From positions 1 through 60,291 of the IMG/VR virus record IMGVR_UViG_3300035682_000039: 60,291 bases of DNA. One strand, written 5' to 3'. This stretch comes from a virus. Its lineage: Duplodnaviria; Caudoviricetes. A program made the translations under genes and the position numbers. Of this stretch, positions 18,058 through 21,285 are shown in pieces. The notes below the pieces were generated by a model. The model did no database searches. It had not been told where the DNA came from and was given only the letters and a program-made list of their open reading frames with translations. Every line of letters starts with the position of its first letter. Position 1 is the stretch's first letter.

Positions 18058-18230
18058 CGTATTTTCCTTATTTTTTGTTTTATTAGTTCTACATCTTCTT
18101 CTGCATTAAGCTGGTCAATAATATTTTTCCAGCCTCTCCTTCTGCCCACGCCTAGATACCAATTTGCCAAATAGGTAATCCGCTCCTCTGGTGTGTTTAG
18201 TCTGCACTTAGCCCATGGATCTTTTTTCAT
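18054..18230 (-). CDS. Small hypothetical protein (58 aa)
   Basis: MKKDPWAKCRL...; ATGA overlaps at both ends. Confidence 0.65.
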   Translation of the reverse strand: MKKDPWAKCRLNTPEERITYLANWYLGVGRRRGWKNIIDQLNAEEDVELIKQKIRKIR

Positions 18231-19708
18231 GCCTGAACCCTCGCTTTAGACTTACTGTAAGCAATGATGCGACTCTTAATCCATTTCATGGTTGGAGCAG
18301 ATGTAGGTAATGGTTCTACTCGGATGCCATTGGGGTACACGGAAAACTTCTCTTTGTATTTCATGGCAGCCCACCCGTCCTTATATCCCTTTAGCTTGCC
18401 GTAATACATCAACTCAGCATAGAACTGGCGGTTGTCAATCTGGAGCTTGCGGTTAGTTTCTGCAAGTTCTTGGAGTTCGCCCGGTATGGTTAGGATTTGC
18501 TTTAGCGGACGCTCGTAACCGCACTCGCCACAGATATTGCTTTTGAATGTCCATAACGCTTTGCACTTCGGGCAGACTGCTTCTTTCTTTTCCCGCTCGG
18601 TAGGTTCTTTCTTAGCCTTCTCTTCGGAGCTATCTAAAGTCTTAACTCCTTCGGTATACAGATTGTCCCAGTCGCTTCTAAACCGCAAGAAATTACCCGA
18701 GTGATCAAGCCAAAGACCAAACTCTTTACCTTCGTGCGGACGCATGACTCTACCCATCTGTTGCACATGGGATGAAAAAGACTTTGAGAATGGTCTAGCA
18801 GATACTCCGATCATTACATCGGTTACATCAAACCCTCTAGTAAGAATGTCAGTCGCAATCAATCCATGAATTTCGGTGTCTGGTTTAGAGAACTCCTCAA
18901 TGGTTAAACGTTTGTAGTCATCGTCTTCTTTATAGGATATGGACTCAAACCGATAGCCAGCCTCGGCAAATCCCTTGACTAGGTCTCTGCCATGATCTAC
19001 GCCCGAACAGAATACGATTGTCTTTCTTGGGCCGCCAAAGATTTCATGCGTCTTTTTAATCCATTCGTTGACTACATCGCCTGTAATTGCCATGCCACGT
19101 TTGGAAACTTCAGCTTCTTTCCATTCGCCAAATGAGTTCTTCTCAGCTCCTGTCATGTCAATCTCTTTGGCTACAAATACTTTCAAAGGGACTAACCAAC
19201 CTTTCTCTACCAAGTCGCCAGTCGGAGTAGCTCCTACCACATGGGTATAGATATCTCCTAAGCCTTTAGTAAATGGGGTGGCAGTTAATCCAATAGCACG
19301 GATGTGTGGATTTTTATTGAGGAACTCAACTGTTTTCTTACGGACGATATGACACTCATCCAAAATAATAAGGTCGATGTCTGGGAATGAATCCCTTCTC
19401 TCAAGGGTCTGTGCAGAACAAACTTGGATTCGCTCCGATGGTCTTTCTCTCCAATGACCAGCTTGCATAACTCCATGCTCGATGCCGTACTTAGACAGTC
19501 TGGCACTCGTCTGGTCAACTAAGACTATCCGATCTACAATCATGGCGGCTTTCTTGTACCCTTCGGATACTCGCCTCATGATCTCCATCGCTACCTCGGT
19601 TTTACCGAAGCCTGTGGATGCATACAGTAGTTGTCTTATGTGTCCTTGTTTGAAGCCTTGCTTTATTTGCTCCACCACTTCTTGTTGGTGTGGTCTTAAC
19701 TCTAACAA
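18227..19708 (-). CDS. Superfamily 2 helicase with C-terminal zinc finger (likely TTG start at 19708)
   Basis: LRPHQ, STGFGKT, DECH, TATP, QQMGRVMR, CPKC..CGEC; AAGGAG before the TTG. Confidence 0.9.
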   Translation of the reverse strand: MLELRPHQQEVVEQIKQGFKQGHIRQLLYASTGFGKTEVAMEIMRRVSEGYKKAAMIVDRIVLVDQTSARLSKYGIEHGVMQAGHWRERPSERIQVCSAQTLERRDSFPDIDLIILDECHIVRKKTVEFLNKNPHIRAIGLTATPFTKGLGDIYTHVVGATPTGDLVEKGWLVPLKVFVAKEIDMTGAEKNSFGEWKEAEVSKRGMAITGDVVNEWIKKTHEIFGGPRKTIVFCSGVDHGRDLVKGFAEAGYRFESISYKEDDDYKRLTIEEFSKPDTEIHGLIATDILTRGFDVTDVMIGVSARPFSKSFSSHVQQMGRVMRPHEGKEFGLWLDHSGNFLRFRSDWDNLYTEGVKTLDSSEEKAKKEPTEREKKEAVCPKCKALWTFKSNICGECGYERPLKQILTIPGELQELAETNRKLQIDNRQFYAELMYYGKLKGYKDGWAAMKYKEKFSVYPNGIRVEPLPTSAPTMKWIKSRIIAYSKSKARVQA

Positions 19709-19757
19709 CTTTATCTCCTTTACTATCAGGAAACCGCCTGATGTCGGTACAAAATAA

Positions 19758-19904
19758 TGGGCGGGGGTGGCTGGCGTTGATCTCCAGCTTCTGGAAAATG
19801 TTTTGTTCGCCACCCTATCCGAAGTGTGTGGAAAATAAGGTAAACCACACTACTTTTTCAAACGCAAACAGCACACCCTCGTATCAACCTACGAATTCAC
19901 CCCC
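19758..19904 (-). ncRNA. tRNA-like structured RNA with loop-loop pairing
   Basis: GGGGGTG/CACCCCC closing stem followed by GCCCA; 5' hairpin loop GGTTGA complementary to 3' hairpin loop AGATCAACG. Confidence 0.55.
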
Positions 19905-19970
19905 ATAAGTCTGGTGAGGTACTTACGCTCCGTATGTGAAGCGGAAAATCGTGCGTTTTCCCTCATTACG

Positions 19971-20804
19971 TTATGCAGCTTTTGAGACTTGCTTCTTCCA
20001 GTAATTCACTTGCTTTAATAATTCCGCATTCTTCTGCTGATAAGCGTCTCGAGAAGCAGTTAAGCCTTTGATCTGTGCTTCTTGGCTCTTGATGGTGGCA
20101 CGAAGCTCATCAATTAATTCTTGTGCAGATTGCTTATCTTCTTCGGACGCATCCATGCCTTTGACTGCTAACTTCGCCTTGAGTTCTTCGTTCTCCTCCG
20201 CTATGGCTTGGAACTCAGTTGCCATCTCTTCAATCTTTTGTTCCTTCTCATCAACGACTGGATCGGGTGGAGTCTCTGGTTTGGCTTTTTTTGTTCGACC
20301 CATCTTCGATGTGTCCATCGTATACTCAACACCGCCACGAGTTACTTTACGAGCTGTTGGTTGAGGAGTGTTCATTTCCTTACGAATCTTATCTACGAAT
20401 GTCGCTGATACACCGCAAACTTCTGCGATCTTGATATTGTTCCACTCGCTCCATTCAAAATCTTCCAAAAGAACAAGAACGGATCTGCGTTTATCGGCAT
20501 TGGTTCTGCGTAATCCGTGCTTATCGTTGGCACTGACGGCAAATAGAATCGCATCTCTGCGTGAACCATCATGGACTTCGGCTTCAATTTCTGCAAATGC
20601 TGCTTGTTTGTGGGCAAAGAAACGATGCCAGCCGTCTGCTAGGTGGTAGGTCTTACCATCAAAAAATACTGTTACTGGCGGCATCTTGCCACCTTCACGG
20701 ATTACTTCTGCGTATTCTCTGACGGCATCTTCAATGATCTTGTCACGAACCTGCAAATCGCCATCTACATTGATTTTTTCTAACCTTATTTTTTCTAGTT
20801 TCAT
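19971..20804 (-). CDS. ParB/Srx-domain protein with HTH and coiled coil
   Basis: PPVTVF..YHLADGWHR; IAEVCGVSATFV HTH. Confidence 0.8.
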   Translation of the reverse strand: MKLEKIRLEKINVDGDLQVRDKIIEDAVREYAEVIREGGKMPPVTVFFDGKTYHLADGWHRFFAHKQAAFAEIEAEVHDGSRRDAILFAVSANDKHGLRRTNADKRRSVLVLLEDFEWSEWNNIKIAEVCGVSATFVDKIRKEMNTPQPTARKVTRGGVEYTMDTSKMGRTKKAKPETPPDPVVDEKEQKIEEMATEFQAIAEENEELKAKLAVKGMDASEEDKQSAQELIDELRATIKSQEAQIKGLTASRDAYQQKNAELLKQVNYWKKQVSKAA

Positions 20805-20849: not shown

Positions 20850-21175
20850 TCTTTTGGTGGACGCACCTCGCCTACCCAGTGCGTCCTTCAACTGCTTCCT
20901 CCTTTGGAGCCACAGCACCCGACAGTCGTTCGTAGAGTCGGCACTATCTTCGCCACCGACCTTGCACTATTACATCTACTTACCCCCAGTAGTGCTTGTA
21001 TTTATCCCGCTGGTGTACTCAAAGCCGTCCAGGATAAACCTACAAAAGAAAAACCCCTTGGGGTTGTTCTAAGGTGAAGTTGCTTAATAAATGGATCTCG
21101 ATCATTTACTAAACACTCAGAACAACCCGAAGGGGTCTGGTCGAAATCAACTTACCACACGGACTTCACTCCGCC
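20850..21175 (-). ncRNA. Long structured leader / candidate ncRNA upstream of the replication genes
   Basis: Multiple stems including 21053-21070/21119-21136 (17 of 18 bp) followed by a U-tract. Confidence 0.5.
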
Positions 21176-21285
21176 ATAAAACTTTAACACAAAAGAGCCA
21201 AACAAAATATGTAATTTACGCTTGGCTCTAACTATCTTTATCCGATAACGATGGAAGGTAGTTGAAATAAATATAACACAAAAAT

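Follow-up and report, generated by a model that had tools for sequence, protein, structure and literature searches.

A tRNA-shaped phage RNA with kissing loops, located upstream of a helicase gene, belongs to a new widespread family

What kind of RNA occupies the 262-base gap between the genes for a ParB-like protein and an SF2 DNA helicase in the phage record IMGVR_UViG_3300035682_000039, and what might it do there? The window, meaning the whole stretch of DNA that was analyzed, comprises 60,291 bases and corresponds to a complete phage record with direct terminal repeats. The genes on either side, in this replication operon, are read from the minus strand, and on that strand positions 19758-19904 are predicted to fold into a four-way junction of 147 nucleotides (nt) that has the shape of a tRNA. 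This element belongs to a new and widespread family among tRNA-like phage RNAs; the reading favored here, at roughly an even chance, is that of a stable mimic of the top half of a tRNA, residing in phage operons and handled by the tRNA-processing machinery. The parts of the element are listed below in transcript order, with helix lengths in base pairs (bp).

19898-19904, minus strand: 5′ strand of P1, the acceptor-like closing stem, GGGGGUG; pairs with 19763-19769
19895-19897, minus strand: linker J1/2, AAU, formed by invariant columns of the family alignments
19879-19894, minus strand: P2, the D-like hairpin UCGUA-GGUUGA-UACGA, with a 5-bp stem and a 6-nt loop at 19884-19889
19884-19888, minus strand: first kissing partner, GUUGA in the P2 loop; pairs with 19776-19780
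19796-19878, minus strand: P3, the variable central arm, 83 nt, with an apical hairpin at 19826-19850 and its loop at 19832-19844
19789-19795, minus strand: linker J3/4, 7 nt, leading from P3 to P4, placed by sequence and alignment
19770-19788, minus strand: P4, the T-like hairpin GCUGG-AGAUCAACG-CCAGC, with a 5-bp stem and a 9-nt loop at 19775-19783
19776-19780, minus strand: second kissing partner, UCAAC in the P4 loop; pairs with 19884-19888
19763-19769, minus strand: 3′ strand of P1, CACCCCC; pairs with 19898-19904 over 7 bp
19758-19762, minus strand: 3′ tail GCCCA, of which RCC is kept in 14 of 14 close copies and is not kept family-wide

The features that an initial annotation had described from the letters of the window are all present, namely the 7-bp closing stem, the GCCCA tail, the two hairpins, and the stacking of the 3′ hairpin on the closing stem: P4, which reads GCTGG-AGATCAACG-CCAGC as DNA, is followed by P1 with zero nucleotides in between. 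The same is true for the complementarity of the two loops (GTTGA and TCAAC) and for the insert of about 90 nt in place of an anticodon arm, since 90 nt (19878-19789) separate the P2 and P4 hairpins, including an internal hairpin at 19850-19826, and inspection of the sequence revealed no TTC T-loop. The minimum free energy of the element is -50.9 kcal/mol as compared with a shuffle mean of -40.5 (z -2.6), and 2 of 200 shuffled sequences are as stable. ARAGORN reported no tRNA or tmRNA genes in the window and none in 79 loci. An Rfam search, which had been recommended as a check, returned no known family at the element (19500-20200, Rfam 15) even at E values of up to 10, with the models for tRNA, tmRNA, and riboswitches included.

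Close copies of the element were collected by protein-anchored searches, which yielded 30 helicase loci and 35 ParB loci, and by pattern scans, which added copies in 13 viral stretches and nine metagenome stretches. In the resulting set of 14 distinct sequences, aligned by fitting to the model, 97.2% of the cells are paired and both sides have changed in 13 of 36 pairs; such changes affect five of the seven pairs of P1, five of 13 in P3, and three of five in the apical hairpin. None of 500 shuffles reached the observed values, and slid controls were 35-58% paired. P1 measures 7-9 bp in these copies and is followed by RCC, while P2 and P4 are invariant in stems as well as loops. G-U pairs, three of them invariant at the base of P3 and others located in P1, P4, and the kiss, are valid on the minus strand only and therefore identify this sense strand as the one that folds. 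Among 53 sources, model R1 found 15 matches of at least 135 bits, all of them known copies, together with two chance matches of E > 1; the element of the window scores 173 bits. The element is confirmed as a conserved, structured RNA beyond chance, and the initial annotation is supported insofar as a tRNA-shaped RNA that folds independently lies on the sense strand of a replication operon.

When the 291-nt intergenic region was compared by blastn with 50,697 phage records, no match was found, and the link to a wider family surfaced only through structure-aware patterns. These were loosened stepwise, from the T-arm only, which gave one new member, to both loops fixed with the stems left free, which gave 68 stretches, five of them with fully paired yet different P2 and P4 stems. 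The T loop only led to four more lineages, and a pattern that specified the new kind of D-arm and left the T loop free led to at least 120 IMG/VR stretches, from which 108 unique elements were parsed among the matches listed. Model R2, built exclusively from 24 enterobacterial-type sequences and from none of the window type, has the element as its sole match in the window (19759-19907, 39.5 bits, E 2e-07). It recovers all divergent members, among them that of phage HK620 at 83 bits, and finds nothing in P22 or in the other modules of the variable slot described below. On the family alignment of 97 distinct rows (98 in total), 97.2% of the cells are paired, as compared with 21-54% in slid controls, and both sides have changed in 15 of 23 pairs (six of eight in P1, all five in the P2 stem, and three of five in the P4 stem). 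GUGAA at the boundary of P1 and J1/2 is conserved family-wide, and P1 measures 7-9 bp in 91 of 107 clean elements. P3 ranges from absent to about 200 nt, being replaced or shortened in other members, and the conserved core thus consists of the closing stem, both hairpins, and the kiss. The minimal member, 65 nt long (L200), lacks P3 and forms a three-way junction with two kissing hairpins. The family can be defined by P1, GUGAA, a 5-bp P2 with the loop GGYUGA, a variable P3, and a 5-bp P4 whose loop ends in UCARY N and which abuts P1; the element of the window fits every one of these features, including the complementarity of five nucleotides between the loops.

The family is large. One member matches 136 cultured-phage records (61 from Klebsiella and 40 from Escherichia), and its P1/P2 part matches 605 of 5,426 complete E. 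coli genomes, with 92 matches covering at least 80% of the query; the genomic copies are unannotated among the matches listed. In HK620 (L388 2506-2602), the element lies in the constitutive late leader, with pR′/qut upstream and the late terminator tR′ downstream, and carries no annotated feature. Some phages harbor two copies (in locus L263 at 1526-1698 and 2677-2788; also in L268, L307, L294, and L295). With a hairpin whose T-loop is canonical (GGUUCGAUUC), the central arm of the first copy in L263 looks like a small nested cloverleaf. A literature search, which included an exact 22-base string and did not extend to supplements and subscription journals, where a prior description is possible, found no description of this RNA.

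As both loops are invariant in the close copies, their complementarity cannot be tested within that set. Loop-loop covariation, the second check recommended at the outset, was examined in the homologs, and a compensatory switch emerged between subfamilies: the window type combines GGUUGA with UCAAC, and a large subfamily combines GGCUGA with UCAGC, a change from U-A to C-G. Both window-type loops are retained in nine of nine metagenome matches, though the pattern had left both free. When the T loop was unconstrained, 81 of the 108 GGCUGA elements were able to form all five loop-loop pairs, the opposite loop carrying UCAGC in 69 and UCAGU in 12. In the model-fitted alignment of 98 rows, 98.5% of the cells in the five loop-loop pairs are paired; one of these pairs is C-G in 69 rows, U-A in 12, and something else in two, and another is G-C in 72 rows and G-U in 13. 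Variation in the 9-nt T loops is concentrated at positions 1-3 and 9, with positions 4-8 almost constant. Judged by these patterns of substitution, the switch supports pairing between the loops across subfamilies.

Does the position of the element reveal its role? It precedes the helicase gene in eight of 30 helicase relatives and is absent from the other 22, where the gap contains other modules or is empty. Its presence differs even between close relatives with helicases 94-99% identical, and in distant ParB/helicase relatives (38-44% identity) the Shine-Dalgarno sequence is preceded by a short conserved hairpin and nothing else. In a second phage group, the element resides between a phrog_27714 gene and the gene for a 957-residue primase/helicase, about 15 nt before the primase start. 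There, 29 relatives of the primase provide 17 distinct slot sequences, 18 including locus L082, of at least eight module types, and only four of the 18 contain the element. All modules of this primase slot are clamped by a G-run/C-run helix (GGGG...CCCC) followed by A(C/U)C, a tail able to pair with GGUGG, the Shine-Dalgarno sequence of the primase gene downstream. The slot is hypervariable (at about 1400-1500 in loci L093-L117), its modules are mutually unrelated, and the other modules are unmatched in Rfam as well. A TTTAYGG leader motif upstream of the modules occurred twice as compared with 2.0 expected; a looser form gave 23 matches as compared with 12.5 expected, mostly within genes.

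Such a location could suggest that the element acts as DNA, either in single-strand initiation or as an origin, or else as a mobile cassette bounded by terminal inverted repeats. In the window, as in two other phage groups, the gene directly after the element encodes a replicative helicase or primase; the close relatives just mentioned either have or lack the element in the manner of a cassette; and the strands of P1 amount to terminal inverted repeats. This explanation is nevertheless highly improbable, given that the many G-U pairs (in P1, P4, the kiss, and the base of P3) exist on the sense strand only, that the orientation always follows transcription, and that most family members reside away from replication genes. 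The last point also qualifies the initial annotation, which had placed the RNA within the replication transcript: this holds for the window, whereas the family at large is not specific to replication and occurs in late leaders and upstream of N-like, terminase, and capsid genes.

The elements neighbor tRNA genes well beyond chance expectation. A same-strand tRNA gene begins within 500 nt downstream of 12 of 117 elements, as compared with about 1.0 expected from 38 tRNAs across 1.06 Mb of these loci, and in four loci tRNAs immediately following the element were confirmed with Rfam. This adjacency fits a stable RNA handled alongside tRNAs. The other downstream genes are unrelated to one another (N-like, small terminase, major head, MazG-like, primase, and helicase), which speaks for an RNA that is a unit of its own and against a regulator tied to a single gene. 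It is the core geometry, the association with tRNA genes, and the diversity of downstream genes that favor the stable mimic of the top half of a tRNA, a reading whose chances we put at about even. Structurally, the closing stem, usually of 7-9 bp, stacks without a linker on the 5-bp T-like hairpin, and the 5-bp D-like hairpin follows the conserved GUGAA(U) junction. A Watson-Crick kiss of up to 5 bp substitutes for the canonical elbow between D-loop and T-loop, and the position of the anticodon arm serves as a free insertion site. Transcribed within phage operons, here presumably between the ParB-like and helicase genes, the element would fold independently as a stable module and be handled by host factors that recognize the acceptor/T-arm/elbow shape of tRNAs, that is, by the tRNA-processing machinery. 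The outcome would be either its release as a stable RNA or a processing mark in a polycistronic transcript. The structure, the kiss, the membership in the family, its distribution, and the link to tRNA genes are shown by the data, and processing, stability, and any role in trans are inferred.

A variant of this idea posits an RNA decoy, a minimal imitation of acceptor, T-arm, and elbow that phages would carry in their RNA-gene slots and that would soak up or misdirect host factors. It appears unlikely, and the same applies to its two elaborations: it is doubtful that the slots in question would be late leaders and the heads of tRNA clusters, with a central arm tuned to each host, and equally so that the targets would be toxins modifying or cutting tRNA acceptor ends or enzymes of tRNA processing or quality control.

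Several observations weigh against the preferred mimic of a tRNA top half. Although the window combines a 7-bp P1 and a 5-bp P4 lacking a linker with a GCCCA tail, RCC follows P1 in just 23 of 146 loosely scanned family elements (21 of 107 clean ones), and divergent members lack it. The stem-plus-RCC arrangement that had inspired the initial proposal of RNase P cleavage is consequently not a family feature. The base preceding P1 shows no preference (A 40, C 39, G 39, and T 28), and the tRNA and tmRNA models do not match the element. Some divergent members lengthen P1 into long helices or nest in another scaffold (L122). The loop switch may represent a single evolutionary event dividing two clades, and uncompensated loop mismatches occur in three lineages (the L263 group, L200, and L210), which were found by the pattern with a fixed T loop. 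Contigs from four RNA-library runs (X1 to X4) were consulted, bearing in mind that contigs cannot reveal RNA ends. One metatranscriptome contig, from run X1, spans 19928 to 19660; it crosses the element without stopping there and reaches into the helicase gene, and carry-over of DNA could account for it. The contigs of runs X2-X4 cover parts of the helicase gene only and are uninformative on the element. Finally, the end of P1 and the ACC that follows it form CCACC in the primase group, and this CCACC pairs with the Shine-Dalgarno sequence GGUGG. An AUC variant, found in a different module of that slot, preserves this pairing by means of G-U, which points to a translational role in primase-group phages.

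A rival view holds that the element remains in the messenger and acts in cis, setting the stability, processing, or translation of the next gene; it might, for instance, protect the 5′ end left by a cleavage or belong to a leader that masks the Shine-Dalgarno sequence. We regard this view as possible, if rather unlikely. The element is always found on the sense strand, just 5′ of a gene (49 nt from the helicase start, about 15 nt from that of the primase); the primase slot houses at least eight other structured modules with the same G-run/C-run clamp among its 18 distinct sequences, and the X1 contig is continuous with the helicase gene. Against this stand the unrelated downstream genes across the family and the 12 of 117 elements that are followed by tRNA genes instead of a coding gene. 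Moreover, a terminator separates the element from the next gene in HK620 and in L080, where the order is element, terminator, primase gene. The Shine-Dalgarno pairing is confined to one phage group, whereas the window instead has a separate conserved hairpin before its Shine-Dalgarno sequence. This hairpin (19725-19742, minus strand; 6 bp, loop CGGUUU) lies directly 5′ of the Shine-Dalgarno sequence of the helicase gene, shows compensatory changes in its stem, is kept even in distant relatives that have no RNA module (loci L017-L019 and L044-L064), and may be a translational operator.

A terminator-like hairpin is present within 250 nt downstream of 17 of 106 clean elements, and a strict scan detected none for the other 89. 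Purine-type aptamers share a general layout in which a three-way junction carries two kissing hairpins. The 65-nt L200 member has this layout, and by analogy the element could be a sensor RNA, riboswitch-like or protein-binding, in which a junction held by the kiss would bind a ligand or factor and control a downstream terminator or ribosome-binding site. The 17 elements with a nearby terminator-like hairpin and the high conservation of GUGAA in the junction are compatible with a sensor. The idea is very unlikely all the same: the junction strand in which the pocket would be expected carries an inserted helix of zero to about 200 nt, the terminators that were seen share no bases with the 3′ strand of P1, the strict scan places no terminator in the vicinity of 89 of 106 elements, and the riboswitch models of Rfam are unmatched.

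How does the family relate to RNAs already described? The P1/P7 C4 and P4 CI RNAs are phage-encoded, possess paired ends and two hairpins, and are cut from a longer sense transcript by RNase P. In contrast to C4, whose loops pair with an mRNA target, the two loops of the present family pair with each other. Neither C4 nor CI matched the window element or an enterobacterial member in Rfam 15 at E values of up to 10, so that the comparison with these RNAs made in the initial annotation does not extend to family membership. Its suggestion of an antisense regulator fares no better with respect to an effector in the central arm, since this is the most variable part of the element and therefore unlikely to hold an antisense effector as a conserved function; an antisense role of the P3 apical loop was dropped because P3 is not conserved family-wide.

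Nearest in kind to the present family is rnaC of bacteriophage T4. T4 species 1 and 2 (rnaC and rnaD) are annotated as small stable phage RNAs of about 120-140 nt in line with tRNA genes, and rnaC has paired ends, a T-arm near its 3′ end, and a long insert that replaces the anticodon region. However, its T-arm is canonical (GGUUCGAAUCC), whereas the present family combines an AGAUCARYR loop with a Watson-Crick kiss. Model R2, run with filters off on the 8-kb T4 tRNA region, attained 7.8 bits at best, at neither rnaC nor rnaD. YrlA, a non-coding RNA that occurs in phages too, shares a D-like arm, a T-like arm, and an acceptor-like stem with the present family (PMC4201824). RNase P RNA is reported to cleave YrlA of M. 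smegmatis in vitro, an activity credited by the authors to the 7-bp acceptor-like stem (PMC4201824). YrlA differs in that its ends form the Ro-binding stem and its acceptor-like stem is closed by a loop, whereas here the ends form the acceptor-like stem; YrlA also adjoins a Ro60 gene and keeps canonical tRNA tertiary contacts (PMC4201824). In the complete 60,291-base phage record, TROVE/Ro60 (PF05731) had no matches, the control genomes being positive. Plant mitochondrial t-elements are tRNA-like structures in messengers that are reported to act as end-forming signals (PMC1920247); they belong to another kingdom and have no sequence relation to the present element, for which an end-forming role is a hypothesis.

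Other candidates were rejected. The small RNAs that have been described in P22 upstream of genes 24, 13, 1, and 5 (PMC13397905) do not belong to the family, as R2 finds no P22 copy. StxS (PMC7547250) is unrelated because the PR′-tR′ leader of Sakai prophage Sp5 contains no element. RydB was discarded as a relative, its Rfam match being an 18-nt partial one (E 0.14) and the K-12 rydB locus having no D-like arm. A hairpin at K-12 rydB (L391 2714-2781), GCCGG-AGAUAAGCG-CCGG, closely resembles the T-like hairpin of the enterobacterial subfamily; it is either a resemblance or a remnant and is treated here as a resemblance.

The surroundings of the element in the window include further structured RNA. 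The flanking genes are as follows.

19971-20804, minus strand: upstream gene, encoding a ParB-like protein (Pfam ParB_N, phrog_1033)
18227-19708, minus strand: downstream gene, encoding an SF2 DNA helicase (Pfam ResIII, DEAD, and Helicase_C; phrog_16)

The helicase gene starts with TTG at 19708, preceded by the Shine-Dalgarno sequence AAGGAG at 19715-19720, and this start is kept in relatives. The mechanical open reading frame 18227-19813 (minus strand) begins at a GTG at 19813 within the RNA element, which is not a conserved start. Genes for a C5 methylase and a Toprim primase lie further downstream of the helicase gene. A scan for promoters and terminators around the element yielded nothing exceeding shuffles. 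Immediately 5′ of the element, a second small module (19913-19964, minus strand) has a GAGG/CCUC clamp followed by ACC, and an internal loop with GAAA opposite AGUA, which we take to resemble the loop-E/sarcin-ricin motif. Longer versions of its scaffold occupy the slot of primase-group phages, and the apical domain of one of them, in L122, is the kissing-loop core. Upstream of the ParB-like gene, Betaproteobacteria-1 RNA (Rfam RF02932, 102 bits) was detected at 20917-21039 (minus strand), as it was in five of eight related loci scanned (L008, L011, L014, L016, and L017), which hints at a betaproteobacterial host. It resembles the element in being a structured RNA of unknown function that lies in the leader region of the same operon; it is nevertheless separate, being located about 1 kb upstream, having another structure, and remaining unmatched by R1 or R2. 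The leader at 21040-21190 (minus strand) offers mutually exclusive pairings, a long stem versus a CCCC-AA-GGGG hairpin followed by a U-run, with a terminator-like site at its end (21065-21052), just 5′ of Betaproteobacteria-1 RNA, and looks like an attenuator.

Should the proposed reading be correct, a common structured RNA would have been overlooked in well-studied temperate phages, for the family extends to HK620, to Klebsiella, Salmonella, and Stx-converting phage records, and to prophages in about one in nine complete E. coli genomes. In freshwater phages, the hypervariable RNA-module slot 5′ of replication genes behaves like a cassette site for structured RNAs. The family would furthermore represent a second way to build a tRNA-like elbow, in which a Watson-Crick loop-loop helix replaces the contacts between D-loop and T-loop, and it would link phage tRNA clusters to non-tRNA stable RNAs such as T4 species 1 and 2, whose function has long been unknown since their description.
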